Source of the DNA: Escherichia coli
Lineage (GTDB): Bacteria > Pseudomonadota > Gammaproteobacteria > Enterobacterales > Enterobacteriaceae
Reading direction: 5' to 3' (one strand)
NCBI RefSeq assembly: GCF_003334815.1
Contig: NZ_QOWO01000026.1
Length of the DNA: 62,123 nucleotides
The translations under genes were made by a program, and so were the position numbers. How positions within the stretch are numbered: the first letter of the stretch is position 1; every line of letters begins with the position of its first letter. The notes beneath the pieces were generated by a model. It ran no database searches and was not told where the DNA came from. It saw nothing but the letters and a program-made list of their open reading frames with translations. Positions 15,423 through 62,123 of this stretch are shown one piece after another.

Positions 15423-15582
15423 ATTGAACTCACGCCTGTTAGTTGAAATTTCGCATTTAATTTCATGATTTTTAGGAGATTAGTCTCAAATCAGAATTTA
15501 TTTTAGCTAACAGGTGTTCACTGGAACTATTCTCAGTTACGCTGGAGAGGTATACATGTGCGTGTACGTTTCTCCGGAGTAA

Positions 15583-16245
<663 letters not shown>

Positions 16246-25918: not shown

Positions 25919-27367
25919 TTATTCTCCATGCTCATTTTTCTTCAGCTTGCGCATCAGAAGCCACATACGTACTGTCCTGACTTTTAAATCTTTATCAGAG
26001 ACGGATTCCTTCACCAGGTCAGCATGATGCTGATAGCCATTAAAGAAGACGTTCAGCACAACGGCGCTAAGGGTTGCGAGCATAATGCCGCTATGTAGCA
26101 GCGGTTGCAGTACGGCCGGTAACTTAGAAAAGAAATCGTGAGAGAGCGTCGGAGTCATGCCAACGCCGAGACTGATCGCCACAATATAGAGGTTGTAACG
26201 GTTGGTGGTGTAGTTACAGCGCGACAGAATTCGAATCCCTGTCGCCAGTACCATGCCGAACATCACTAGACCAGCGCCGCCCAGCACAAATTGCGGAATG
26301 GAGGCTACCAGCACCGCCATTTTTGGCACCATGCCAAACAGGATTAATATAATTCCCGAAGAAATACACACCCAGCGGCTATGAACGCGCGTCACGCTAA
26401 CCAGGCCAACGTTTTGAGAAAATGACGTGTGGGGGAAGCTGTTAAACGTGCCGCCTATCATTGTCCCTACGCCATCGACACGCAGCCCGCGAATAATATC
26501 GTGCGAAGAGAGTTTACGACCGACTATTTCACCCAGTGCCAGGAACATCCCCATCGACTCGATAAACACGATGATTAACACGGCAGTCATGGTCAGAATG
26601 GAAACGGGATCGAAAATCGGCATACCAAACGACATCGGCGTAACAATCGCAAACCATGAAGCATCATGTAGCCCGGATAAATTGACTTCATTCATCATCC
26701 ACGAAAGTAAAAAGCCAAATACAATCCCCAGTAATACGGCGACGTTGGACATAAATCCTTTCGCATAGCGAGTAATGAGCAAGATAAAAATTAAGACGGC
26801 AAAGGAGATACCTAAATAAACGGGATTACCATATTGCGGATTCCCTTTACCTCCGGCGGCCCAGTCAATACCCACCTGAATGATGCTAAGCCCGATAGAA
26901 GTAATAACCACACCGGTAACCAGTGGCGGGAATAAAGGCATCAAGCGACCGATAAGTGGCGCTAATAATGTGGTGATAAAACCCGCGGCGATAGTGGCAC
27001 CAAATATCCCCAGCAGGCCGATATCCGGGTTCATCCCAATGGCTATCATTGGTGTTACAGCAGCAAAGGTCACCGACATAATCACCGGCAGGCGGATCCC
27101 CATAAAGCGGCCGATACCGATACATTGCAATAATGTGACGATCCCGCAGCAAAAGAGATCCGAGCTAATGAGCATCGCAATAGCTTCTTTTGAGAGGCCC
27201 AGTCGGTCACCAATCATAAGAGGAACAGCGACTGCACCTGCGTACATGACAAGGACGTGTTGCAGACCGAGTATGATCAGCTTTCCTGGTGATAATATGC
27301 GGTCAACCTCATCAGTTGGGCGGTCTTGCCCAGAAGATGAGGGAAGTTGGGAATCTATGGCGCTCAT
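25919..27367 (-). CDS. uacT: Uric acid:H+ symporter (NCS2/NAT family)
   Basis: 482 aa from MSAIDSQLPSSSGQDRP; multi-TM; NAT signature region; the track ORF has 43 extra N-terminal codons. Confidence 0.95.
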   Translation of the reverse strand: MSAIDSQLPSSSGQDRPTDEVDRILSPGKLIILGLQHVLVMYAGAVAVPLMIGDRLGLSKEAIAMLISSDLFCCGIVTLLQCIGIGRFMGIRLPVIMSVTFAAVTPMIAIGMNPDIGLLGIFGATIAAGFITTLLAPLIGRLMPLFPPLVTGVVITSIGLSIIQVGIDWAAGGKGNPQYGNPVYLGISFAVLIFILLITRYAKGFMSNVAVLLGIVFGFLLSWMMNEVNLSGLHDASWFAIVTPMSFGMPIFDPVSILTMTAVLIIVFIESMGMFLALGEIVGRKLSSHDIIRGLRVDGVGTMIGGTFNSFPHTSFSQNVGLVSVTRVHSRWVCISSGIILILFGMVPKMAVLVASIPQFVLGGAGLVMFGMVLATGIRILSRCNYTTNRYNLYIVAISLGVGMTPTLSHDFFSKLPAVLQPLLHSGIMLATLSAVVLNVFFNGYQHHADLVKESVSDKDLKVRTVRMWLLMRKLKKNEHGE

Positions 27368-27435: not shown

Positions 27436-27451
27436 TGCTCGTGGAGTGCCA
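27436..27451 (-). promoter_or_regulatory. Candidate sigma54 promoter upstream of uacT
   Basis: Minus strand reads TGGCACTCCACGAGCA. GG-N10-GC spacing is correct and the -24 element TGGCAC is perfect, but the -12 element is GAGC rather than TTGC. It lies about 70 nt upstream of the ATG. Confidence 0.35.
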
Positions 27452-27802
27452 GTTTTTGCGAGGAAGGGGAGTTAGAGACAGGAATTGCGGAGGCAATCAC
27501 ATAATCGTGGTTAAACCACGAAAATGAGAATAGAACCTGACAATGGAATTATCTGTAATTTTCTCATATTGATATTTCATTAATCATTCTGGCATGTCGC
27601 ACTCTCGCATTTAATCGTTTTTATCTGGATAGCGCTCTTTTGATCGGCAATGTTGAAATAATGAAAGCGGCATAGATTGAGGGGCAATAATTTGAACTCA
27701 GTCGCAAAATTATAATTAAAACGGTCATGCTACCTAATATATGCCCGTTTATTGCATCGCGAAATTTGAGAAGACATAACTCATTAAATGAAAGGGATGC
27801 AA

Positions 27803-29722
27803 ATGAATAAGTTTATTGCTGCTGAAGCTGCGGAATGTATAGGCTGTCATGCTTGTGAAATTGCCTGTGCGGTGGCACACAATCAAGAAAACTGGCCGCT
27901 GAGTCACAGTGACTTTCGACCGCGTATCCACGTTGTAGGGAAAGGCCAGGCTGCGAATCCGGTGGCCTGCCATCACTGCAACAATGCCCCTTGCGTTACG
28001 GCTTGTCCGGTTAATGCTCTGACTTTCCAGTCCGATAGCGTACAACTGGACGAGCAAAAATGTATTGGTTGTAAAAGATGCGCAATCGCTTGCCCCTTTG
28101 GCGTCGTTGAGATGGTCGATACGATTGCGCAGAAATGCGACCTTTGTAACCAGCGCAGTTCCGGCACGCAAGCCTGTATTGAAGTTTGCCCAACACAGGC
28201 GTTACGACTGATGGACGATAAAGGGTTGCAGCAGATAAAGGTGGCCCGCCAGCGCAAAACGGCAGCAGGAAAAGCGTCATCAGACGCTCAGCCATCTCGC
28301 AGTGCAGCGTTGCTCCCCGTTAACTCGCGTAAAGGCGCAGATAAAATTTCAGCGAGTGAACGGAAAACCCACTTTGGCGAAATATATTGCGGGCTGGATC
28401 CACAACAAGCGACTTATGAGAGTGACCGCTGTGTTTATTGTGCCGAAAAAGCTAACTGCAACTGGCATTGCCCGCTGCATAACGCTATTCCGGATTACAT
28501 CCGTCTGGTACAGGAAGGAAAGATTATTGAAGCGGCAGAACTTTGCCACCAGACCAGTTCCTTACCAGAAATTTGCGGCAGGGTATGTCCACAGGACCGT
28601 CTTTGTGAAGGCGCATGTACTTTGAAAGATCACTCGGGCGCAGTCTCTATCGGTAATCTGGAACGCTACATCACCGATACCGCGCTGGCGATGGGCTGGC
28701 GTCCCGATGTCAGCAAAGTTGTTCCCCGTAGCGAAAAAGTGGCGGTGATTGGCGCTGGGCCTGCAGGGTTAGGGTGTGCTGATATTCTGGCGCGCGCAGG
28801 AGTTCAGGTCGATGTCTTTGATCGCCATCCAGAAATTGGCGGTATGCTGACTTTTGGCATTCCTCCTTTCAAACTCGATAAAACGGTATTAAGCCAGCGG
28901 CGAGAGATATTCACCGCAATGGGAATCGACTTTCATCTTAACTGTGAAATTGGCCGCGATATTACCTTTAGCGATTTAACTTCTGAATATGATGCAGTTT
29001 TCATCGGCGTGGGGACTTACGGGATGATGCGAGCAGATCTGCCGCATGAAGATGCGCCCGGTGTCATTCAGGCTCTACCGTTCCTGACTGCCCATACCCG
29101 CCAGCTCATGGGATTGCCGGAGTCTGAAGAGTATCCGCTGACGGACGTGGAAGGTAAGCGAGTCGTGGTATTGGGCGGTGGCGATACGACAATGGATTGT
29201 TTGCGGACTTCCATCCGCCTCAATGCCGCCAGCGTGACCTGCGCGTATCGTCGTGATGAAGTCAGTATGCCGGGCTCGCGCAAAGAGGTGGTTAATGCGC
29301 GCGAGGAAGGTGTCGAGTTTCAGTTCAATGTTCAACCGCAATATATCGCTTGTGACGAAGATGGGCGTTTAACTGCGGTGGGCCTGATTCGTACCGCCAT
29401 GGGTGAGCCGGGGCCGGATGGTCGCCGTCGTCCTCGTCCGGTAGCGGGTTCAGAGTTTGAATTGCCCGCCGATGTTCTGATTATGGCCTTTGGTTTCCAG
29501 GCGCATGCCATGCCGTGGTTGCAGGGCAGCGGAATTAAACTCGATAAATGGGGCCTGATTCAAACCGGTGACGTCGGGTATTTACCTACCCAGACGCATC
29601 TGAAAAAAGTCTTTGCTGGTGGTGATGCAGTTCATGGCGCGGATCTGGTTGTCACTGCAATGGCCGCAGGAAGGCAGGCGGCGCGCGATATGTTAACTCT
29701 GTTTGATACGAAGGCATCGTGA
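27803..29722 (+). CDS. ygfT: Fe-S plus NAD(P)/FAD-binding oxidoreductase (GltD/AegA-like)
   Basis: 639 aa from [18 protein letters not shown]; N-terminal 4Fe-4S ferredoxin Cys clusters; [11 protein letters not shown] dinucleotide fold. Confidence 0.93.
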
Positions 29723-50027: not shown

Positions 50028-51224
50028 TTAAGGTGCTACAGCGTGTTTGCCTTCCCAGACAACTTCGCGGTAGTGCTTCACGTCGGTGTCGCCTTCAGTG
50101 CTGATAACCAGCACCACGGCATCTTTGTTCAGCGCCAGTTTTTCCATCAGGCTTTGACGTTGCGGGTGATAATGAACCGCTGCGAGAACGCCCAAACCGA
50201 CAGCGCCGGATTCACCGGAGATGATGCGCGGGTCGTTGCCGTACGGATTACCCAGCACGCGCATACCTAATGCGGCAACGCTGTCCTGGCAGGAGATGAA
50301 TTGGGTGGCGCAGTTACGTAGGATTTCCCAGCCCAGCGGGTTAGGTTCGCCACAGGCCAGGCCTGCCATGATGGTGGCCATATCACCGCCAACGTTGACG
50401 ATGTCGCCTTTGACGCCGGAGCGATAAATACAGTCAGCTTTGTCAGGTTCAACAATAATGCTGTGCAGATTTTGCGGGCTATAGACGTCGACCAGATAAC
50501 CCAGCACACCACCGGCCATTGCTCCGACACCGGCTTGCAGCAGAACGTGCGTCGGGGTTACGCCCATTTCACGCATTTGCTCGACGGCTTCATCTGCCAG
50601 GGTTGCGTAGCCTTGCATGATCCAGGTTGGGATTTTGGTGTAACCTTCCCATGCCGTGTCCTGTACCACTTCCCAGCCGTGCTGCTGCGCGTGTTGCATG
50701 GTCAGGCGAACGGTATCGTCATAGTTCATATCCGTGACGATGCACTCGGCACCGAGGTTCAGAATGGCGTCAACGCGTTCCTGAGCAGAACCTTTCGGCA
50801 TGTAAATCACCGCATTCTGTCCGAGTTGCTGTGCTGCCCACGCCACACCGCGCCCGTGGTTGCCGTCGGTGGTGGTCGCGAAAGTCATTTTTTCGCCGAT
50901 GGCATTTTTCAGGTGCTCAAATGACAGCGTTTCGATATCAAGATGATATTTTTCACACAATAATTGAGCGATGGCGTACGCACCGCCAAGCATTTTGAAG
51001 GCGTTCAGACCGAATCGTTTTGATTCGTCTTTGACGAGAATTTTCTTCACACCAAAAAGGTTTGCGAGATCGTCCAGCGCACAAAGCGGTGTTGGGCGAT
51101 AACCAGCTATTTTCTGGTGGAACTGGCGCGCCAGTTTGGCCTGGCTTTGCGAAAAGAGCGGTGATGTTTCGCCGTTGAAAAATTTGTTATCGGCGATATC
51201 AATCTTCAATGAGAAAACGGACAT
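50028..51224 (-). CDS. dpaL: Diaminopropionate ammonia-lyase (PLP-dependent)
   Basis: 398 aa; PLP-lysine region DESKRFGLNAFK. Confidence 0.93.
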   Translation of the reverse strand: MSVFSLKIDIADNKFFNGETSPLFSQSQAKLARQFHQKIAGYRPTPLCALDDLANLFGVKKILVKDESKRFGLNAFKMLGGAYAIAQLLCEKYHLDIETLSFEHLKNAIGEKMTFATTTDGNHGRGVAWAAQQLGQNAVIYMPKGSAQERVDAILNLGAECIVTDMNYDDTVRLTMQHAQQHGWEVVQDTAWEGYTKIPTWIMQGYATLADEAVEQMREMGVTPTHVLLQAGVGAMAGGVLGYLVDVYSPQNLHSIIVEPDKADCIYRSGVKGDIVNVGGDMATIMAGLACGEPNPLGWEILRNCATQFISCQDSVAALGMRVLGNPYGNDPRIISGESGAVGLGVLAAVHYHPQRQSLMEKLALNKDAVVLVISTEGDTDVKHYREVVWEGKHAVAP

Positions 51225-51281: not shown

Positions 51282-52472
51282 TTATTTCACGCGTTCTTGC
51301 GCTTCTTTCAGCAGTTGCTCGAGCAGTGCACCTGGTTTGGCGTATTTACGGGACAGGATCATCGCGGCGATGATATAAGGCTTCCAGCTGGCTTCTTTGT
51401 AGGTAGCGATACGGTATTTTTCGAATACGCCTTCAGTCACTTCACCTTCTTTACAGGATACGCCGCTGATATCAGCTGGCAGGCAGTGCATGTACAGGGC
51501 TTCGCCATCACGGGTCAGTTCCATCATCTCTTCAGTACAATGCCAGTCTTTGTGTTGCGCGTTCTGTGCCAGACACTGTTTTTCCAGTGCTTTTAAGCCT
51601 TCGTGATCGTTCGCACGCAGCAATTCAGTACGCTCTTCCATCACTTTGTAAGGTGCCCATGACTTCGGATAAACGATGTCTGCGTCTTTGAAGGCTTCTT
51701 CCATGCTGGTGACCTGACGGAAGCTACCACCGGAGGCTTTAGCATTGTTTTTCGCCACTTCAACCACATCCGGGATCAGGTCGTAGCCTTCCGGATGGGC
51801 CAGGGTGACATCCATACCGAAGCGAGTCATCAGACCGATGATGCCTTGTGGTACAGAGAGCGGTTTGCCATAGCTTGGAGAGTAGGCCCAGGTCATGGCG
51901 ATTTTTTTACCTTTCAGGTTTTCCAGTGAACCAAAGTGTTCACGTAACCACGCGAGGTCAGCCATTGACTGAGTCGGGTGGTCAATATCGCATTGCAGGT
52001 TCACTAAAGCCGGACGCTGTGGCAGTACACCCTGCTTGTAACCGTCATCAAGTGCAGCGCCAACTTCACGCATATAGGCGTTGCCTGCGCCCAGATACAT
52101 ATCGTCGCGAATACCAATAGCGTCGGCGCAGAAGGAGATCATATTGGCGGTTTCACGCACGGTTTCGCCGTGAGCGATTTGTGATTTGCCTTCGTCGAGA
52201 TCTTGTTGTGCAAGGCCGAGCAGGTTAAGCGCGGAAGCATAAGAGAAGCGGGTACGGGTGGAGTTGTCGCGGAATACGGAAATACCTAATCCACTATTAA
52301 AGACTTTGGTTGAGATGTTTTCAGCACGCAGTGCTTTTAATGCTGCGGCAACGTCCAGTACTTGTTTCAGTTCATCTGGCGTCTGTTCCCACGTTAACAA
52401 AAAATCTTTCTCGTGAAGGTGAGAGGTCAGCGAATTGATATCCTTAATCAGCTCATTAACAGTTTTCATCAT
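51282..52472 (-). CDS. ygeW: Carbamoyltransferase of unknown substrate (ATCase/OTCase family)
   Basis: 396 aa; STRTR carbamoyl-phosphate motif (DNSTRTRFS) and HCLP motif (MHCLPA). Confidence 0.94.
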   Translation of the reverse strand: MMKTVNELIKDINSLTSHLHEKDFLLTWEQTPDELKQVLDVAAALKALRAENISTKVFNSGLGISVFRDNSTRTRFSYASALNLLGLAQQDLDEGKSQIAHGETVRETANMISFCADAIGIRDDMYLGAGNAYMREVGAALDDGYKQGVLPQRPALVNLQCDIDHPTQSMADLAWLREHFGSLENLKGKKIAMTWAYSPSYGKPLSVPQGIIGLMTRFGMDVTLAHPEGYDLIPDVVEVAKNNAKASGGSFRQVTSMEEAFKDADIVYPKSWAPYKVMEERTELLRANDHEGLKALEKQCLAQNAQHKDWHCTEEMMELTRDGEALYMHCLPADISGVSCKEGEVTEGVFEKYRIATYKEASWKPYIIAAMILSRKYAKPGALLEQLLKEAQERVK

Positions 52473-52563
52473 AAAGTCCCGGTAGTGGAATGACAGGCAA
52501 AGTGGTTTATTTCACTGTGACTTGCCAAAGTGATTGGTGTTTTCACAGCTATACCTGGGACTA

Positions 52564-52578
52564 ACAATAAGTGTGCCA
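52564..52578 (-). promoter_or_regulatory. Candidate sigma54 promoter of the ygeW operon
   Basis: Minus strand reads TGGCACACTTATTGT: the -24 element TGGCAC is perfect, spacing is correct, and the -12 element is TTGT instead of TTGC. About 95 nt upstream of the ygeW ATG, next to the sigma54 activator gene ygeV. Confidence 0.5.
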
Positions 52579-52947
52579 GAATTATCCGCGCGGCTGCAAA
52601 AGACTAATTTGACGGATAATGTGTGGGGTTGATCACAAATTGATGCCAGCTTCTGGTTGTTTGTAAAATACGAAAACGTTTGGCTTTTTTTATCGCGTTA
52701 TTTATTTGCTGCTAAGTATCAGAAATAAGATAAAGGGGCAGGCTATCTCTCTTCAGTTTGATAAACTCACCGCCGTAATTCTCATATTGATATAGAAATG
52801 TGATATCTCTTCCATAATTTCATTAGAAAATGATAAAAATCTTATGTTTTTATCAAAGCCAATTTCGCCTGAGTTAATATCATCATGATCTGTGAACCAT
52901 CAACGTCTTCAATGATCGACTTTTAAGTAAGTCTGGAAGGTAAAGCT

Positions 52948-54726
52948 ATGGAGCTTGCTACTACGCAGTCAGTATTGATGCAAATTCAACCGACAATTCA
53001 GCGTTTTGCCAGAATGCTTGCCAGCGTTTTGCAGCTTGAGGTTGAGATCGTTGATGAAAACTTGTGTCGCGTTGCCGGAACGGGCGCGTATGGGAAGTTT
53101 CTTGGTCGCCAGTTGAGCGGCAACTCACGCCTGCTCCGCCACGTCCTGGAAACGAAAACTGAAAAAGTTGTGACACAGTCTCGCTTCGATCCCCTTTGCG
53201 AAGGTTGCGATAGTAAAGAAAATTGCCGCGAAAAAGCATTTCTGGGTACGCCTGTCATTTTACAGGATCGTTGTGTTGGGGTGATAAGTTTGATTGCCGT
53301 TACCCACGAGCAACAAGAGCATATCAGTGATAATTTACGCGAATTTTCTGATTATGTTCGCCATATATCCACCATTTTTGTTTCGAAACTTCTGGAGGAT
53401 CAGGGGCCAGGAGATAACATCAGTAAAATATTTGCGACCATGATCGATAATATGGATCAGGGCGTATTAGTTGTAGATGATGAAAATCGGGTTCAGTTTG
53501 TTAATCAGACTGCCTTAAAAACACTTGGTGTTGTGCAAAATAATATTATTGGGAAACCTATCCGTTTCAGACCATTAACATTTGAGAGTAATTTTACCCA
53601 TGGACATATGCAGCATATTGTTTCATGGGACGATAAAAGTGAATTAATCATTGGTCAATTGCATAACATTCAGGGCCGACAATTATTTTTAATGGCGTTT
53701 CACCAATCGCATACCAGTTTTTCTGTAGCAAATGCACCTGATGAACCGCATATTGAACAATTGGTTGGCGAGTGCCGTGTTATGCGGCAATTAAAACGAC
53801 TCATTAGCCGTATTGCACCCAGCCCATCCAGCGTTATGGTGGTTGGTGAAAGCGGCACGGGTAAAGAAGTCGTCGCCCGTGCAATCCATAAGTTGAGCGG
53901 AAGACGGAATAAACCCTTTATTGCTATCAACTGTGCCGCGATTCCGGAGCAGCTTCTGGAGAGCGAACTGTTCGGTTATGTTAAAGGTGCATTTACTGGC
54001 GCTTCTGCCAACGGTAAAACAGGGTTGATTCAGGCGGCGAATACGGGCACGCTGTTTCTCGATGAAATAGGTGATATGCCATTAATGTTGCAGGCTAAAT
54101 TACTGCGCGCTATTGAGGCACGTGAAATTCTGCCGATTGGTGCCAGTAGCCCAATACAAGTCGACATTCGCATCATTTCTGCAACTAATCAGAATTTGGC
54201 CCAGTTCATTGCCGAAGGTAAATTCCGCGAAGATCTCTTCTACCGACTTAATGTTATCCCGATAACTCTGCCACCGCTGCGTGAACGTCAGGAAGATATT
54301 GAACTATTGGTGCATTACTTTTTACATCTGCATACCCGTCGTCTGGGATCGGTTTATCCTGGCATTGCTCCCGATGTCGTCGAAATATTGCGTAAGCATC
54401 GTTGGCCCGGAAACCTGCGCGAGTTAAGCAATTTGATGGAATATCTGGTTAACGTGGTTCCTTCAGGTGAAGTTATCGACAGCACGCTATTGCCGCCAAA
54501 TCTGCTGAATAATGGCACAACGGAGCAAAGTGATGTAACAGAGGTCAGTGAGGCGCACCTGTCACTCGATGATGCGGGCGGCACGGCGCTGGAGGAGATG
54601 GAAAAGCAAATGATCCGCGAGGCGCTTTCACGTCATAACAGCAAGAAGCAAGTTGCTGATGAACTGGGCATCGGCATTGCTACGCTCTATCGCAAGATTA
54701 AGAAATATGAGTTGTTAAACACATAA
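52948..54726 (+). CDS. ygeV: Sigma54-dependent transcriptional activator (bacterial enhancer-binding protein)
   Basis: 592 aa; AAA+ Walker A GESGTGKE; sigma54-contact GAFTGA motif; C-terminal Fis-type HTH; N-terminal sensory domains. Confidence 0.95.
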   Translation: MELATTQSVLMQIQPTIQRFARMLASVLQLEVEIVDENLCRVAGTGAYGKFLGRQLSGNSRLLRHVLETKTEKVVTQSRFDPLCEGCDSKENCREKAFLGTPVILQDRCVGVISLIAVTHEQQEHISDNLREFSDYVRHISTIFVSKLLEDQGPGDNISKIFATMIDNMDQGVLVVDDENRVQFVNQTALKTLGVVQNNIIGKPIRFRPLTFESNFTHGHMQHIVSWDDKSELIIGQLHNIQGRQLFLMAFHQSHTSFSVANAPDEPHIEQLVGECRVMRQLKRLISRIAPSPSSVMVVGESGTGKEVVARAIHKLSGRRNKPFIAINCAAIPEQLLESELFGYVKGAFTGASANGKTGLIQAANTGTLFLDEIGDMPLMLQAKLLRAIEAREILPIGASSPIQVDIRIISATNQNLAQFIAEGKFREDLFYRLNVIPITLPPLRERQEDIELLVHYFLHLHTRRLGSVYPGIAPDVVEILRKHRWPGNLRELSNLMEYLVNVVPSGEVIDSTLLPPNLLNNGTTEQSDVTEVSEAHLSLDDAGGTALEEMEKQMIREALSRHNSKKQVADELGIGIATLYRKIKKYELLNT

Positions 54727-54765: not shown

Positions 54766-55245
54766 TTACTTCGTTTTCTCGCAATCCAGAACTGTATTTA
54801 CAATCATCTGATACCCCGTGCAGCGACAAAGATTTCCCGCCAGTCCGCGACGAATTTCCGTAATGGTTAATGGCTTCTCGCGTGGTTTCGCCAGCATTGC
54901 CGTGGTAGCCATAATCAGGCCAGGCGTACAAAACCCGCACTGCACTGCGCCGGATTTCGCATAAGCCTGCTGAACATGAGAAAGTTTTCCGCCTTTCGCT
55001 TCACCTTCCAGCGTGCGGATCTCTTTTCCTTCAGCCCAGGCGGCAAGGTATAAGCAACTGTCTATTGCTGTGCCGTCGACCAACACCGTACAGGCACCAC
55101 ATTCACCCACGCAGCACCCTTGTTTGACACTTAGCAGTCCTTGTTCGCGGAGTAATTCCGAGAGCGGCGTGCCTGGTGCGGCGTGAAGCTGAAAAGGCAT
55201 CCCGTTAATGGTGCATTCGATGGTAATTGTTTCGCTGTGATTCAT
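54766..55245 (-). CDS. xdhC: Xanthine dehydrogenase, 2Fe-2S subunit
   Basis: 159 aa; CxxGxCGACTV and CGFCTPG cluster motifs. Confidence 0.96.
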
Positions 55246-56120
55246 TGCAATTTTCCCCCCGCCGCGGCGACGGCTTCGCTAATCACTTTTTTGGTCATCG
55301 TCTGGATGAGATGCAGACGAAACTCTTTACTGGCCCGCCATGAAGAACGCGGGGCGACATCTTGCAGGACAGATTCGCTGATAGCTTCCAGCGTTTGCAG
55401 GTTTAATGGCGCATTTTGTGCAGTCTGTTCGGCATGTTGGCAGCGAATCGGCGTTGGCGCGGCAACACCAAATGCCAGGCGTAATTCGCTGAAATTGCCG
55501 TTATCCAGTCGGCAATGTGCGGCGCAGCCAATCGTTGAAATATCCATTGCGTCGCGCATGGCATATTTAAAATGCGCGCTGCCCGCGTGTTCTTTCGGCT
55601 GTGGCGGAAAATGAAAGGCGACGAGGATTTCGTCATGCTCAAGAGACACTTTGCCCGGCCCGGTGTGAAAGCCATTAATCGGGACGAAACGAACACCGCG
55701 CGGGGAGTGGATCTCCAGTTTCGCGTCATAAATTAGCGTTGGCGTGGCAGAATCTGCGCTGGTGGCACCGTTGCAAATATTTCCACCGTAGGTAGCGACG
55801 TTACGGATCTGCGGTCCAGCAATGGACGTGGCCGCAGCACATAACGCCGGGAGATGACGTTGAGTTATAGGATCTTCTATTAGCTGGGTAAATGTCGTTG
55901 CAGAGCCGATACGTAGCGAGCCATCTTCCGCCAGCGTAATTCCCCGCAGCTCCGCCAGATTATGAATATCAACAATATGGCGATAACGGTCATTGTGATG
56001 GTGGAGCTGAATCAGTACGTCAGTGCCACCGGCGAGCAGTTTGGCCTGCGGGTTGTCAGCCAGCAGGTTGATGGCATCGGCAAGGGTTGCTGCGCGATGG
56101 TAAGAAGCAAAATCAAACAT
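55242..56120 (-). CDS. xdhB: Xanthine dehydrogenase, FAD-binding subunit
   Basis: 292 aa; LAGGTDV FAD motif; 4-nt overlap with xdhC. Confidence 0.96.
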
Positions 56121-56130
56121 GATGTTATCC

Positions 56131-58389
56131 TCAAATCAATCCTGCCAGATGGAACTCTTCATATAACCGTTTTGGCGTCAGCGGCAGTGTATTGATTGCA
56201 ACACCGGTAGCCATCTTCACCGCGTTACGAATAGCAGCGGCAACAGGAATTATTGGTGGCTCACCCAGTGACTTATGTCCGTATGCGGATTGCGGCTCAT
56301 TGATTTCGACGAACGCGCTTTCCAGTTGTGGCAGATCCGGCATGGTCGGCATTTTGTAATCCAGCAGATTGGGGTTACGGACCACGCCGCTTTTAGCATC
56401 GATGATCATCTCTTCAAATAGCGCCCAGCCAATGCCCATTCCCATTCCGCCGTGTACCTGACCTTCTGCCAGCAGTGGATTAAGAATATGCCCTGAATCA
56501 TGAACGTTGAGGATGCGGTTGATGGTGACTTTGCACAGCGCAATATCGACCGTCAGATCAACAAAGGTACAGCCAAACGCCGGTGGGTTAGTGGTGGTTT
56601 TGATGGAGCTTTCAGCAGAGAGCTGCCCGCCGCGTTCAGGGTGGTAGAAAGCGTCCATCGCCAAATCTTTTAACGACATTAACGGCTCTTCCGGTCGTTC
56701 AACCAGCACGATATGGCCTTTTATCAGGGTCAGATTCATCGCTGACTGATGTAGCATGACTGCGGCGTGAGCGATGATTTTCTCTTTTAATAATAGTGCC
56801 GCACTGCGCAGCGCAGGCGCGGCAACATAGCTCTGGCGTGAGGCAAATGCGCCGGGATCGAACGGCGTAACGTCGGTATCTTGAGTTGAAATAACGCGAA
56901 CGTCGCTGACCGGAACCCCCACGGTTTCTGCCACCATTTGCGAGAAGACGGTGTCGGCACCCTGACCGATTTCCGTCGCGCCGCTTTGCACGTTGATGGT
57001 TCCATCCTGATTCATCAGAAGGCGCGCGCCTGCTATTTCTACGCCGACAGGCCAGGTGTTAGAGGTGTAGCTAAAACAGGCGACGCCAACGCCGCGGCGC
57101 AAATTGCCTTGCTGGTTCTGGCATTCTGCACGGCGTTTTTCCCATTCAAAGATTTTCCGGCCTTTTTCAAGACACTCCGGCAACCCTGCGCTGTAAATAC
57201 GTTTGCCCGTGAGCGGATTAGCATCTCCTTCGCGGGCGGCGTTGCGTAAACGAATTTCAACAGGATCAATACCTAACGCTGTCGCGGCGTCATCAAGCAT
57301 AGACTCAACGGCAAATACGACTTGTGGCGCGCCATAACCACGCATCGCACCAGCCGAGGGGAGGTTGGTATAGCAGGTCTTTGAACTGTAAGCGTAGGCA
57401 CAACGAGGATAAAGGTAAGCGACTTTATTCCCCCCCGCAGAAGCGATGGAGTGCCCGTGAGATGCATAAGCGCCGGTGTTAGACAGAACATCCAGACTAT
57501 AACCTTTCAATGTTCCGTCGCGGTTCACGCCCATTTGCCCGTCAATGGTAAAAGCGTGGCGGGTACGGGTTGCGAGGAAACACTCTTCACGGCTAAGGGA
57601 AACTTTCACCGGAATGCCGCCAAGCTTGCTGGTCAGGAATGCCGCCATTGGCTCTTCCAGTACATCCTGTTTATTACCAAAACCGCCACCGACAAATGGT
57701 TTGATGACTCGTACGCATGACCAGGGAATATCCAGCGCCTGACCAACCACGCGGCGAACAATGTGCGGGATCTGGGTGCTGGAAACGATGGTAATTCGCG
57801 AGTCATCCTCCATCCACGCCAGCGATGTTACGCTTTCCATGTGACAATGTTGAATAACGGGGGTCTGATAGTGCCCCTGTACCTGGTAGTCGGCGGCATC
57901 GATTGTTTGTTGGACATTACCCGTCGACATCGTGCTTTGTTTCAGTAAATTGCCACCGTTATGGATTGGTGCAGCGTCTTCTGCCAGCGCCGCTTCTGGC
58001 GTGGTGATAACGGGTAATTCTTGCCACTCAATGCTGACCAATTGCGCCGCTTTTTCTGCCGTGAGTTCATCGCGGGCCACGACGATGGCAACGGCGTCAC
58101 CATGATGACGAACATGGCGAGTTAGCAGTGCGCGATCGGCGGTATCGCGCTTGTTTTCGTCAAGTGTCCAGGCATGCCCAGCTGTAGCGAATGGAATATC
58201 AGGCACATCTTCCCAGGTAAAAATCGCCAGTACGCCCGGCAAACTTCTGGCTTGTTCATCATTAATACTTACGGCATAACCATGTGCGATAGGGCTACGT
58301 ACATATTTCGCATAACACATGCCCGCCATAACATAATCGTCAGTATATCGTGCCCGCCCGGTGACCTTAGCAATGGCATCGACGCGCAT
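56131..58389 (-). CDS. xdhA: Xanthine dehydrogenase, molybdenum-binding subunit
   Basis: 752 aa from MRVDAIAKVTGRARYTDD (K-12 start). An in-frame ATG 13 codons upstream at 58428 is an alternative. Confidence 0.95.
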   Translation of the reverse strand: MRVDAIAKVTGRARYTDDYVMAGMCYAKYVRSPIAHGYAVSINDEQARSLPGVLAIFTWEDVPDIPFATAGHAWTLDENKRDTADRALLTRHVRHHGDAVAIVVARDELTAEKAAQLVSIEWQELPVITTPEAALAEDAAPIHNGGNLLKQSTMSTGNVQQTIDAADYQVQGHYQTPVIQHCHMESVTSLAWMEDDSRITIVSSTQIPHIVRRVVGQALDIPWSCVRVIKPFVGGGFGNKQDVLEEPMAAFLTSKLGGIPVKVSLSREECFLATRTRHAFTIDGQMGVNRDGTLKGYSLDVLSNTGAYASHGHSIASAGGNKVAYLYPRCAYAYSSKTCYTNLPSAGAMRGYGAPQVVFAVESMLDDAATALGIDPVEIRLRNAAREGDANPLTGKRIYSAGLPECLEKGRKIFEWEKRRAECQNQQGNLRRGVGVACFSYTSNTWPVGVEIAGARLLMNQDGTINVQSGATEIGQGADTVFSQMVAETVGVPVSDVRVISTQDTDVTPFDPGAFASRQSYVAAPALRSAALLLKEKIIAHAAVMLHQSAMNLTLIKGHIVLVERPEEPLMSLKDLAMDAFYHPERGGQLSAESSIKTTTNPPAFGCTFVDLTVDIALCKVTINRILNVHDSGHILNPLLAEGQVHGGMGMGIGWALFEEMIIDAKSGVVRNPNLLDYKMPTMPDLPQLESAFVEINEPQSAYGHKSLGEPPIIPVAAAIRNAVKMATGVAINTLPLTPKRLYEEFHLAGLI

Positions 58390-58484
58390 GCATGATTCAC
58401 CCGTAGCGGTTGCTTCCCGCGCTTCCATAGAAATCCCCTCGATTTGAACATTTGGTTCTTATGGCAAAGATTTAGTCTAAGCAG

Positions 58485-58499
58485 GCAAGATTTACGCCA
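58485..58499 (-). promoter_or_regulatory. Candidate sigma54 promoter of xdhABC
   Basis: Minus strand reads TGGCGTAAATCTTGC: TGGC-N7-TTGC with exact GG-N10-GC spacing, about 95 nt upstream of the xdhA ATG. Confidence 0.6.
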
Positions 58500-58842
58500 G
58501 AAACGACGATAAGCGTTAGGGGAGGTAGGAAGTGTGATGACGTTAAAAAAACACAGATATGATACGAAACAGGACTCTGAATAGGGGCAGTGATACGTAT
58601 CAATATGAGTGGCGATAAAATCAATGTGATAAATTGGGATTATTACGCATCAGGATGGGAAATAGGGTAAAAAGTCAGGAAGTTCGATACCTCTACAGCG
58701 AATATTTTGCTGATGATACTTCCCTTTGCCAAATGAAATTAACCTCTTTCTCTATTACCACGTTTTTCCAGAAGCAAGAGATTGGGTATCAAGAGGCTGG
58801 CTGCTATGATAAGGCGTCTTGTTTTTTAAGCGAGGAAAGATT

Positions 58843-59676: not shown

Positions 59677-59750
59677 GCGGGCGTAGTTCAATGGTAGAAC
59701 GAGAGCTTCCCAAGCTCTATACGAGGGTTCGATTCCCTTCGCCCGCTCCA
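59677..59750 (+). tRNA. glyU: tRNA-Gly (anticodon CCC)
   Basis: 74-nt cloverleaf GCGGGCGTAGTTCAATGGTAGAACGAGAGCTTCCCAAGCTCTATACGAGGGTTCGATTCCCTTCGCCCGCTCCA with encoded CCA; acceptor stem GCGGGCG/CGCCCGC; anticodon loop CUUCCCAAG. Confidence 0.97.
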
Positions 59751-59864
59751 TGACACTTCTTAAAGTATTCCAACTTACTGAATCCTAAGGGATATGGCTT
59801 AACGCCTCCTTGCAGAGTTACTTACTGTAACCCACTGTGTAACCCTCTCAGGGCATACAGACAT

Positions 59865-61511
59865 ATGATTCAGCTATCCAGCAGTCACAAACTTCCAGCC
59901 GTCTCCTATCTCTACCAGCGTAACGGCGTCTACTACTTCCGTCTTCGGGTCAGACAATCAAACAATGATAGAATGACCTCAATATCATTACGGACCAAGG
60001 ATAGACGCACCGCTATGGCTCACTCAAGGCACATCAAGGCAGCACTCAAGGCAATACACGCAGACAGACCCAACGCTACCTATGAGGAAATGAGGGAGCA
60101 CCTTAAGGACATCGCTGAGTGTGAACTGTCTATGGGCCGTTCAGATCTCTTTGAGCCTGACATGAGGGATATCTACCGGGACCAATACGGAGAACTTGGT
60201 GAGAGCCTTACCGATGCTCTGGCTAGTGAGCCGCTAAGTATTGACCAGCATCGTTACATCAATGAGGCCCTGAAGGTGCTAAAAGCCTGCATGAGGCGTA
60301 TCGAAGCGGGAGACAGTCAGCCTCTGATAGATTACGTCGATCATTTTAATGATATTGATAGGCAAGATAGCCAAGTAGCCTCTGTGTCCCTATCTGTTAA
60401 TGCTCCAGAAGTAAAACCAGAAGTAAAACCAGAAGTAAAACTAGAAGTAAAACCAGAAGTTACGCCTAGCATTACCATAGCGAGCCTCTTTGAGCAATAC
60501 GAAGCGGAGAATTATCAGAACTGGAAGCCTGCAACCTTAAGGGAAAACAAGGCGTCACACGCTGCGTTAATCGAAATATTCGACCATCTGGGTCTCAATG
60601 CAGACGCTAACAGGGCTGACATGCTTAAGGTCCGTGATGTGCTCCAGCAGTTACCTAGGAACCGTAAGCAGCGCTTCAAGGATGCCCCACTTGCTGACCT
60701 GTTGAGCCGTGAAGATAAGACAGATTGTCTGGATGTCGTTACCATCAACAACAAGTATCTTATTAAGATGGCTGCTGTCTTTAGGTGGGCTGTGCGCAAT
60801 GACTTGATTAAAAAGAACATGACTGAGGGTCTGGAGCTTAAAGTCCCTCAGCGTAAAGCCTCAGGGGCCCGTAACGCCTTCTCTACGGAGCAGGTGGGGC
60901 AACTACTGGTCGCAGCTAAGGCATACTCTCAGAAGACCTCTGGTAAGCCCTACCACTATTACGTTACGGCTTTGGCTGCTATCACTGGGGCGAGACTCAA
61001 TGAAATAGCCCAACTACAGGTCAAAGACGTCAGGACCACTGAGGCGGGAACCGTTTATATTCATATCAATGAAGACGATAGTAGTCTACCCGGTAAGAGC
61101 ATCAAGAACGCTCATAGTGACCGCTGTGTGCCTCTGGTCGATGGGGCCTATGGTTTTATATTGGCTGACTTTATGAGGTTGGTTGAGACCCGTAGAGGCG
61201 CTGATGGTGATGACGCTATGGTGTTCGATGGTCTTCGCCTCATGAAGAACGGTTACGGTGAGCAGGTGAGTAAATGGTTTAATCGGACGTTGTTGCCTAA
61301 AGTCCTCGCAGATCGTAGCGGCTTAGCGTTTCACTCGTTTAGACATACAGTTGCGACCCAGTTAAAACAACATGGGGTCGAGTTGGCGTATGCACAGGCG
61401 ATCATGGGGCATAGTTCAGGGTCTATTACTTACGACCGTTATGCTAAAGAGGTTGAGGTTGATAGGCTGGTCAATGTGATGGCTGATGTTTATAAGGAGA
61501 TTGTGGGGTAA
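59865..61511 (+). CDS. Tyrosine recombinase / phage-type integrase (548 aa)
   Basis: C-terminal catalytic signature: GARLNEIAQL (Arg), HSFRHTVATQL (His-x-x-Arg), GHSSGSITYDRY (His...Tyr nucleophile). N-terminal YLYQRNGVYYFRLRV arm-type domain. Adjacent to the tRNA. Confidence 0.9.
   Translation: MIQLSSSHKLPAVSYLYQRNGVYYFRLRVRQSNNDRMTSISLRTKDRRTAMAHSRHIKAALKAIHADRPNATYEEMREHLKDIAECELSMGRSDLFEPDMRDIYRDQYGELGESLTDALASEPLSIDQHRYINEALKVLKACMRRIEAGDSQPLIDYVDHFNDIDRQDSQVASVSLSVNAPEVKPEVKPEVKLEVKPEVTPSITIASLFEQYEAENYQNWKPATLRENKASHAALIEIFDHLGLNADANRADMLKVRDVLQQLPRNRKQRFKDAPLADLLSREDKTDCLDVVTINNKYLIKMAAVFRWAVRNDLIKKNMTEGLELKVPQRKASGARNAFSTEQVGQLLVAAKAYSQKTSGKPYHYYVTALAAITGARLNEIAQLQVKDVRTTEAGTVYIHINEDDSSLPGKSIKNAHSDRCVPLVDGAYGFILADFMRLVETRRGADGDDAMVFDGLRLMKNGYGEQVSKWFNRTLLPKVLADRSGLAFHSFRHTVATQLKQHGVELAYAQAIMGHSSGSITYDRYAKEVEVDRLVNVMADVYKEIVG
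60380..60399 (+). other. 20-nt match to the T7 terminal-repeat end plus the concatemer-junction class II pause signal (CTCTGTGTCCCT|ATCTGTTA)
   Basis: Compared with my recollection of the T7 left end (...GAGTGTCTCTCTGTGTCCCTATCTGTTACAGTCTCC...). Contains the conserved ATCTGTT heptamer at 60392-60398. Lies in frame inside the integrase linker region. Confidence 0.55.
60405..60464 (+). repeat. In-frame 12-bp tandem repeat x5 encoding PEVK-PEVK-PEVK-LEVK-PEVT
   Basis: ccagaagtaaaa x3, ctagaagtaaaa, ccagaagttacg read directly. Confidence 0.95.
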
Positions 61512-61631
61512 CCAAGCTGTCCACCCCCGGGGAGATTTGCCTTGAGGATGACCATAGTCGATGACCATATTGCTACAGGCCTGTGTGGTCATGTTTTTGA
61601 CTCACGGTTTTCACTACTTGTCAAGGATTTC

Positions 61632-61654
61632 TAATACGACTCACTATAGAGAGA
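61632..61654 (+). promoter_or_regulatory. Bacteriophage T7 RNA polymerase promoter (22/23 match to consensus)
   Basis: TAATACGACTCACTATAGAGAGA versus the consensus TAATACGACTCACTATAGGGAGA. All of -17..-1 is identical, +1 G falls at 61649, and the only mismatch is at +2. Confidence 0.85.
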
Positions 61655-61769
61655 AGGGACACAAAAAGTTTTCTCTCTTTCTCTCTCTTCTAGGACACTT
61701 GCTACTACTACTACAGGCCTGTGTGGTCATGTTTTTGACTCACAGTTTTCACTACTTGTCAAGGATTTC

Positions 61770-61792
61770 TAATGCGACTCACTATAGAGAGA
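61770..61792 (+). promoter_or_regulatory. Second T7 RNA polymerase promoter (21/23 match)
   Basis: TAATGCGACTCACTATAGAGAGA: A-to-G at -13 and G-to-A at +2; +1 G at 61787. Confidence 0.8.
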
Positions 61793-61860
61793 AGGGACAC
61801 AAAAAGTTTTCTCTCTTTCTCTCTCTTCTAGGACACTTGCTACTACTACTACAGGTAGCT

Positions 61861-61896
61861 CTAACTCTAACTCTAACTCTAACTCTAACCGTAACT
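61861..61896 (+). repeat. Hexanucleotide microsatellite (CTAACT)4 plus two degenerate units
   Basis: ctaact x4, then ctaacc and gtaact, read directly immediately after the 138-bp repeats. Confidence 0.95.
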
Positions 61897-62046
61897 TATC
61901 GCATCCTTTCAGGGGCGGGATGACCAATTACAGACACCAAGCGTTCTACTTAAAGTGAATGCTTCCTGTGTGCTCTGGGTCAGTCGATAAGTGAATAGCA
62001 ATAGACATCATATTAAATATGGTCTCTACCCTACAGGGGCTTAACT

Positions 62047-62123
62047 CTGATGAATCCCCTAATGATTTTGGTAAAAATCATTAAGTTAAGGTGGATACAC
62101 ATCTTGTCATATGATCAAATGGT
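62047..62123 (+). mobile_element. IS10 outside end (first 77 bp; the element continues past the window)
   Basis: CTGATGAATCCCCTAATGATTTTGGTAAAAATCATTAAGTTAAGGTGGATACACATCTTGTCATATGATCAAATGGT matches the IS10/Tn10 outside terminus, including the pIN region with its dam GATC (62113-62116). The flanking 9 bp GGCTTAACT resembles the NGCTNAGCN target hotspot. Confidence 0.9.

Follow-up and report, generated by a model that had tools for sequence, protein, structure and literature searches.

The xdhABC operon of Escherichia coli is part of the xdh/yge/ygf purine-urate cluster, and this locus raises the question of which signals upstream of xdhA switch the operon on, and whether the same signals serve the other operons of the cluster. 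In E. coli, this cluster represents the pathway by which gut bacteria remove uric acid in humans, and according to the literature its promoters are already being engineered for anti-gout probiotics. The window, which is the whole stretch of 62,123 nucleotides analysed here, was found to contain this cluster, as judged from the order and sizes of the open reading frames (ORFs) and from literature coordinates; the orientation was opposite to that of K-12. A first-pass annotation, made from the sequence alone, had placed a sigma-54 promoter upstream of xdhABC, with predicted activator sites approximately 100-150 bp further upstream that were common to the operons around ygeV, and the comparative evidence presented below supports this proposed arrangement. 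In our study, we consider it likely that xdhABC is controlled from 58484-58631, where a sigma-54 promoter is served by YgeV at two inverted repeats that belong to an operator shared by the cluster. The promoter, the idea of the regulon with xdhABC as its member, and the clostridial form of the motif were all published previously; the finding is mostly a rediscovery and the gain is incremental. Our literature search, of which EcoCyc and RegulonDB were not directly part, returned no paper with a YgeV operator motif in E. coli. The E. coli motif is therefore a modest addition, in the form of a predicted map of YgeV operators at five promoters.

The sigma-54 promoter of xdhA

The minus strand contained TGGCGTAAATCTTGC at 58485-58499, where the first-pass annotation had seen a sigma-54 promoter. 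The GG (58498-58497) and GC (58486-58485) nucleotides showed the canonical GG-N10-GC spacing, and the sequence followed the pattern TGGCAC-N5-TTGCW, with the two dinucleotides 10 nt apart and facing the gene. The element was present on the xdhA strand, with its GC 57 nt 5' of the ATG, and the predicted transcription start was at approximately 58473. The pattern TGGC-N7-TTGC had two exact matches in the whole window. We built a sigma-54 matrix from 38 motifs mapped elsewhere in the genome by chromatin immunoprecipitation and sequencing (ChIP-seq), which scored 7.9-20.9 themselves; the xdhA promoter scored 12.0. A handful of intragenic positions scored equally, and therefore the sequence by itself makes no compelling case for a promoter.

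Previous studies had mapped this promoter by experiment, and it is already known. The sigma-54 ChIP-seq study of Bonocora et al. (2015) lists the site OS29, CTGGCGTAAATCTTGCC, 5' of xdhA with the flag of an EcoCyc-confirmed promoter ("C"), an occupancy (FAT) of 11 and a score of 10.9 by a position-specific scoring matrix (PSSM). The identical sequence was given in the rpoN microarray study of Zhao et al. (2010), where xdhA was up 4.9-fold with sigma-54 overexpression and down 2.1-fold in the rpoN deletion. PRECISE-1K (Lamoureux et al., 2023) likewise refers to sigma-54 promoters of xdhABC and ygeWXY. The promoter described here does not differ from the published xdhAp (EcoCyc; OS29; Zhao et al., 2010) in sequence or in position; the activator and its binding sites were left unnamed by Bonocora et al. 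(2015) and Zhao et al. (2010). The first-pass annotation had called this the strongest sigma-54 match of the cluster. That ranking agrees with the published PSSM, where xdhA scored 10.9 and the other sites of the cluster 10.1, 9.8, and 4.5, but not with our matrix, where ygeW scored 16.0 against 12.0 for xdhA, nor with the ChIP occupancy, which peaked at ygfK (FAT 26 against 11 for xdhA; Bonocora et al., 2015).

The RefSeq start of xdhA was the ATG at 58428, giving a protein of 765 aa. The distance of 84 nt from the transcription start site to the start codon in Table 1 of Bonocora et al. implies another start at 58389. The start at 58428 is favoured over 58389 because of its strong GAGGGG site and because only synonymous changes were found 3' of this ATG in the loci of other species (alignment A1, see below). 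A riboswitch or structured leader was rejected for xdhA: no Rfam family matched the leader at E <= 1, and its folding z-score of 0.12 against shuffled sequences showed no structure beyond the controls.

The shared inverted repeat and its conservation

The plus strand at 58590-58634 reads gTGATACGTATCAATATGAGTGGcgataaaATCAATGTGATaaatt. This segment contained the reverse complement of the 12-mer CTCATATTGATA at 58598-58609, followed by the ATCA-N3-TGAT site ATCAATGTGAT at 58620-58630. The 12-mer was located 100-111 bp upstream of the -24 GG, in agreement with the distance of about 100 bp given earlier. A side-by-side comparison of the four upstream regions of the cluster showed that the 12-mer falls inside an inverted repeat of 13 bp, T(A/C)TCA-N3-TGA(T/G)A. 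The second site noticed in the first-pass annotation is thus present in a refined form, since the 13-bp repeat occurred twice at xdhA, as the upstream activating sequences UAS-1 and UAS-2 (Table 1), and UAS-2 was the better match to the clostridial matrix described below. The two repeats were 21 bp apart and therefore share one helical face; in copy number and in location, 100-250 bp upstream of a sigma-54 promoter, they are placed as upstream activating sequences are.

Exact copies of the 12-mer were found at three places in the window (27563 and 52781 on the plus strand, and 58598 on the minus strand). Three copies are not significant in themselves, since simulated windows yield one or two triplicate 12-mers each and this window had about ten further ones that were not in tandem. 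The non-random part is their location, since all three were intergenic and a few hundred bases 5' of sigma-54 sites mapped by ChIP; the 12-mer is the shared portion of three operators. The full motif TMTCA-N3-TGAKA was matched exactly five times in the window, where 0.22 matches would be expected, and each of the five was within the cluster. Of 2000 shuffles, 2 did as well as the 390-bp xdhA intergenic region with its two sites of at most one mismatch.

The xdhA/ygeR intergenic region was found in 5412 of 5426 complete E. coli genomes. For footprinting beyond this species, we used three metagenomic loci (L155, L158, and L159) from a scan with the N-terminal domain of YgeV, which returned Escherichia-like loci only. 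Their coding DNA was 85-91% identical to the window and they therefore come from other species; their xdhA intergenic regions were 73-82% identical, with insertions and deletions. The alignment (A1) showed conserved islands at TTTATCACAWTGATTTT (UAS-2), CTCATATTGATAC (UAS-1), GTTTTWTTAAC..CATCACACTTCC, the -24/-12 element and the leader, and the DNA between these islands was scrambled. The -24/-12 element was kept in all three loci except for one spacer base. Both repeats were invariant in L158 and L159, and L155 departed only at the last base of UAS-1. Among the 57 loci containing the xdhA start, UAS-1 was kept in 55, and the spacing between UAS-1 and UAS-2 was 21 bp in all 55 loci that could be scored. 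The repeat between ygeV and ygeW was also invariant (alignment A2). The promoter, both repeats and their spacing are under clear purifying selection.

A separate E. coli-like metagenomic locus (L091, positions 15433-15935, corresponding to approximately 58550-58560 of the window) had a duplication of 12 bp, TCTGTGTTTTTT, in the spacer that separates the activator sites from the xdhA promoter. The spacer is longer by about one turn of the helix as a result, which suggests that the arrangement accepts whole turns.

The motif had been predicted independently in Clostridiales. Nie, Dong and Yang (2019; BMC Genomics 20:565) reported predicted sites for the activator DioR, the counterpart of YgeV in these bacteria, of the form TTATCA-N3-TGATAA or TTCTCA-N3-TGAGAA, for example ATTTATCATAATGATAAGG, TATTATCATTTTGATAATA, and ATTTCCCAATATGAGAATT, at 100-250 bp upstream of -24/-12 elements, with dpaL (ygeX), ygeW-ygfK-ssnA-ygeY, yqeC-ygfJ-yqeB-xdhC, and xdhABC as the predicted targets. 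We scanned the 62-kb window with a symmetric matrix that included the flanks and was made from 19 of these clostridial sites only. The highest rank was found at uacT/ygfT (score 20.7), followed by ygeV/ygeW and ygfK; the fifth rank was the perfect palindrome in yqeC and the sixth was UAS-2 of xdhA (12.9). The ygfK 17-mer TTATCATAATGATAAGG is identical, over 17 consecutive bases, to a DioR site of ygeW in C. botulinum, and CAATATGAGAATT of the E. coli ygeW site to the dpaL site of C. difficile.

Relatives of YgeV pointed in the same direction. A protein homologue search returned mainly near-identical E. coli entries; in a contig search with full-length YgeV, the usable relatives among the matches listed were Photobacterium and Firmicutes, and no Klebsiella or Citrobacter was among them. 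In Photobacterium pectinilyticum, the YgeV protein was 57% identical, its gene was divergent from ygeW-X-Y-hyuA-yqeA, and the spacer between ygeV and ygeW contained TATCAATATGATA approximately 180 bp upstream of TGGCACAGTTATTGA. Five Firmicute loci (L002-L006) contained exact or near-exact repeats, often paired 18-21 bp apart, 5' of strong -24/-12 matches and adjoining full-length ygeV-like genes. One Clostridium metagenome-assembled genome (MAG) contained a ygeV-like gene followed directly by xdhABC. The full-length relatives of YgeV (33-57% identity) adjoined homologues of ygeX, ygeY, hyuA, and xdhABC.

The presumed activator YgeV and the alternative explanations

The ygeV gene is located 3.7 kb from the xdhA promoter. 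The N-terminal portion of its product, about 160 aa long, matched nothing in Pfam and was followed by a PAS domain, a sigma-54 AAA+ domain (Sigma54_activat, E = 8e-71) and a helix-turn-helix of the Fis type (HTH_8), the last at the C-terminus, at about residues 530-592. The Pfam scan found no receiver domain in YgeV, which is therefore probably controlled by a ligand; NCBIfam held no dedicated YgeV model, and all matches were below the cut-offs. The DNA-reading helix of YgeV was almost the same from E. coli to Clostridium: E. coli, Photobacterium, a Tissierellaceae MAG, and the Clostridium MAG all had the HTH segment LGIGIATLYRKI, and the conservation of the operator may be explained by the conservation of this segment. 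Judged from these comparisons of sequence, YgeV is most likely the activator that binds the xdhA repeats.

A YgeV iModulon, or putative regulon, was published with PRECISE-1K (Lamoureux et al., 2023), in which xdhABC co-varies with the other sigma-54 operons of the cluster, uacT and ybiY are members, and YgeV is treated as a sigma-54 activator. Its gene set is that of the regulon proposed in the first-pass annotation, uacT included; however, the fourth mapped promoter faces ygfT, and uacT has a weak candidate only. PRECISE-1K and the study of IsrR (Kumar et al., 2022) give no DNA motif and link YgeV to ethanol or indole instead of purines. These published guesses on the role of YgeV conflict. 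The mapped operator positions are useful in making direct experiments possible.

Several observations weigh against this interpretation of the xdhA region. Both xdhA repeats deviate from the motif by one mismatch, and AT-rich intergenic DNA favours AT-rich motifs, the best matrix score at xdhA being reached in 35 of 2000 shuffles. UAS-1 scored below 4 by the clostridial matrix and was outside the top 40 matches, because its flanks are GC-rich. The half-sites of the motif look like those of Fur and FNR. The iModulon does not include ygeV, and its activity pattern (ethanol in the baeR/cpxR knockouts) is not obviously linked to purines (PRECISE-1K). In the searchable literature, we found no experiment on the binding of YgeV to these sites or on ygeV-dependent expression of xdhA.

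The repeats might instead be the operators of another regulator, such as FNR, another protein of the CRP/FNR family or Fur, with YgeV binding elsewhere. The pathway is anaerobic, and TTGATACGTATCAC, one mismatch away from the FNR core, overlaps UAS-1 and was found in 53 of 57 E. coli loci. Compared by eye, the ygfK site ATAATGATAA agrees with ten consecutive bases of the Fur-box consensus. The right half of TTGATACGTATCAC, however, was not kept in the three loci of other species, where the TMTCA-N3-TGAKA repeats were invariant, and the function of the FNR-like site is therefore doubtful. The same holds for GATACGTATC (58592-58601), which is contained in it; the first-pass annotation had rightly described it as a perfect palindrome, but it was not conserved in these relatives and was rejected as a functional element. 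Furthermore, the motif accompanies ygeV orthologues and the conserved HTH across phyla, including the Firmicutes, and is always found 100-250 bp upstream of -24/-12 elements, which is the geometry of an enhancer and not that of FNR or Fur. The literature search found no relevant FNR or CRP ChIP data at xdhA. Taken together, we regard a different regulator as improbable.

Comparably improbable is a sigma-54 site that is bound but minor, with most transcription of xdhABC coming from a sigma-70 promoter that has gone unrecognised, and with repeats that are incidental. Many sigma-54 ChIP sites are non-productive promoters according to the literature, the occupancy at xdhA was modest, and a scan for sigma-70-like promoters 5' of xdhA gave one weak match at 58732-58704. 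This match was at the level of chance (0.8 expected) and fell in a non-conserved stretch, whereas xdhA responds to the dosage of rpoN and co-varies with the other sigma-54 operons, and the promoter, the repeats and the spacing show the signs of selection described above. That the 12-mer is a functionless repeat of AT-rich intergenic DNA is very improbable, even though triplicate 12-mers arise by chance in such a window, since all three copies were upstream of ChIP-mapped sigma-54 promoters, were invariant across species, matched a motif derived independently in Clostridiales and recurred in the orthologous Photobacterium spacer.

Each of the four sigma-54 promoters of xdhA, ygeW, ygfK, and ygfT had a CRP-like core on the stretch from its activator site to its -24/-12 element (Table 1). 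At xdhA the core was TGTGATGACGTTAAAA, downstream of the UAS pair and upstream of the promoter, and it fell in one of the blocks conserved in A1; the TGTGA half of this core was invariant and the other half was weak, and a core as good was obtained in 133 of 5000 shuffles. Glucose repression and a CRP site in the ygeV/ygeW spacer are both reported in the literature, and the CRP-like cores fit these reports. The xdhA site is possibly a DNA-bending or catabolite-control element. A search for the IHF site WATCAANNNNTTR with at most one mismatch in 58474-58700 gave a single match, which coincided with UAS-2, and none in 58501-58597; IHF-assisted looping was rejected for xdhA, as no IHF consensus was found between the enhancer and the promoter.

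With YgeV as the activator, the following course of events may be proposed. At 58484-58500 of the minus strand, the sigma-54 RNA polymerase forms its closed complex; its occupancy there has been shown by published ChIP-seq. Dimers of YgeV would most likely bind the two inverted repeats, whose centres are at -131 and -152, and assemble into an AAA+ ring, which would reach the promoter by looping and open it with ATP. Transcription would then begin at approximately 58473 and pass through an unstructured leader of 45 nt to the ATG at 58428. The same operator, in exact copies approximately 200 bp upstream, would serve the sigma-54 promoters of ygeW, ygfK, and ygfT, so that the urate/purine cluster may be switched as one regulon. 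It is speculated that the CRP-like site and the T-tract supply the DNA bend, along with glucose control, in place of IHF.

The other features of the window and the comparison with known systems

The positions of the promoters, repeats, CRP-like cores, and genes are given in Table 1. The sigma-54 ChIP site of the uacT/ygfT intergenic region faces ygfT (Bonocora et al., 2015). A candidate on the other strand, located approximately 70-85 nt 5' of the uacT ATG, was absent from the published sigma-54 ChIP lists; it is possibly a weak uacT promoter using the activator site 27562-27574 in common with ygfT. A fifth sigma-54 promoter of the cluster, beyond the four regions considered in the first-pass annotation, was that of yqeB, inside yqeC. 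The repeat within yqeC could act as an enhancer from inside the transcribed region, or it could mark a second promoter. The flanks of the repeat within ygeX scored poorly by the clostridial matrix.

Table 1. Positions of the xdhA control elements and of related features, in the numbering of the window.
Feature	Position	Strand	Sequence	Remarks
xdhA sigma-54 promoter, -24/-12 element	58484-58500	-	CTGGCGTAAATCTTGCC	ChIP-seq site OS29
xdhA 5' leader	58426-58473	-		~45 nt; Shine-Dalgarno GAGGGG 58435-58440; ATG 58426-58428
xdhA UAS-1	58598-58610		TATCAATATGAGT	1 mismatch to TMTCA-N3-TGAKA; contains the 12-mer; centre ~-131
xdhA UAS-2	58619-58631		AATCAATGTGATA	1 mismatch; centre ~-152
ygeV/ygeW site	52780-52792		TCTCATATTGATA	0 mismatches; ~-234 from ygeW sigma-54 start
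ygfK site	42932-42944		TATCATTATGATA	Perfect palindrome; 0 mismatches; ~-202 from ygfK start
uacT/ygfT site	27562-27574		TCTCATATTGATA	0 mismatches; ~-199 from ygfT sigma-54 start
yqeC internal site	44322-44334		TCTCAATGTGAGA	Perfect palindrome; exact; ~220 bp 3' of yqeB promoter
ygeX internal site	50936-50948		TATCAAGATGATA	Exact; 280 bp into coding sequence
CRP-like core, xdhA	58533-58548		TGTGATGACGTTAAAA	2 mismatches to TGTGA-N6-TCACA; centre ~-67.5; beside T7 tract
CRP-like core, ygeW	52622-52637			1 mismatch
CRP-like core, ygfK	42826-42841			0 mismatches; only perfect core in the window
CRP-like core, ygfT	27691-27706			2 mismatches
FNR-like site, xdhA	58590-58603	-	TTGATACGTATCAC	1 mismatch to TTGAT-N4-ATCAA; overlaps UAS-1; contains GATACGTATC
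ygeW sigma-54 promoter	52563-52579	-	CTGGCACACTTATTGTT	ChIP site OS30 (Bonocora et al., 2015)
ygfK sigma-54 promoter	42747-42763	-	GTGGTGCGATTGTTGCT	ChIP site OS31 (Bonocora et al., 2015)
ygfT sigma-54 promoter	27740-27756	+	TATGCCCGTTTATTGCA	ChIP site OS32 (Bonocora et al., 2015)
yqeB sigma-54 promoter	44078-44094	+		Intragenic in yqeC; mutation-validated (Bonocora et al., 2015)
uacT candidate promoter (weak)	27436-27452	-	CTGGCACTCCACGAGCA	GG-N10-GC and perfect TGGCAC; score 7.5
uacT	25919-27367	-		
ygfT	27788-29722	+		Followed by ygfS, ghxQ, guaD, xanQ, xdhD, ygfM, ssnA
ygfK	39576-42674	-		Followed by mocA, yqeC, yqeB, yqeA, hyuA, ygeY, ygeX
ygeW	51282-52472	-		
ygeV	52948-54726	+		Presumed activator gene
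xdhCBA	54766-58428	-		
ygeR/actS	from 58843	+		
tRNA-Gly(CCC)	59677-59750			

The 5' untranslated region of ygeW (52473-52552, minus strand) was 80 nt from the sigma-54 start to the ATG, and hardly varied among loci that are no more than 85-91% identical in their coding DNA. An inverted repeat, CTGTGA-N22-TCACAG, was present in it, and the small number of changes fell in the predicted loops; no Rfam match and no covariation were found in this leader. Outside the cluster, CTGTCGCGATTTTTGCA at 7867-7883 on the plus strand scored 15.1 by the sigma-54 matrix, 5' of an ORF of 364 aa at 8067 which is gcvT as inferred from the gene order; it is devoid of the essential GG and therefore is probably not a sigma-54 site. 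The tRNA-Gly(CCC) gene was followed by an ORF of 548 aa (59865-61511), which contained 12-bp tandem repeats at 60405-60450, and 6-bp CTCTAA repeats were present at 61859-61880. One strain with an identical xdhA intergenic region carried a site-specific integrase gene here, whose product was not compared with the ORF of 548 aa. The end of the window (59677-62123) looks like an island inserted at glyU.

Among known systems, the classical sigma-54 promoters (glnAp2 with NtrC, nifH with NifA, and hyc with FhlA) resemble xdhA in having tandem dyad activator sites more than 100 bp upstream and on the same helix face. They differ in what stands between the activator sites and the promoter, since at xdhA a CRP-like site and a T-tract were present instead of an IHF consensus.

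The closest likeness was found with the clostridial DioR system, which has the same inverted repeat, multiple sites per promoter, and the same targets, including xdhABC. The DioR-type activator and YgeV are alike in being PAS / AAA+ / HTH_8 proteins, and their orthology is suggested by the YgeV-like loci of Firmicutes (L002-L006) rather than by the named DioR proteins. DioR was predicted in Clostridiales only and is still called uncharacterised in the literature. A more tentative extension, which we hold to be possible but doubtful, is that YgeV/DioR, the operator code and the -24/-12 promoters form a portable control module found from Firmicutes to Enterobacteria, that E. coli acquired CRP-type sites at every one of these promoters, downstream of the enhancer, which replaced IHF and wired glucose repression into the looping, and that the yqeC operator is an enhancer within a transcribed region. 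The E. coli sites differ from those of DioR in being hybrids (TATCA...TGAGA), and the xdhA pair was the weakest and the most promoter-proximal among them.

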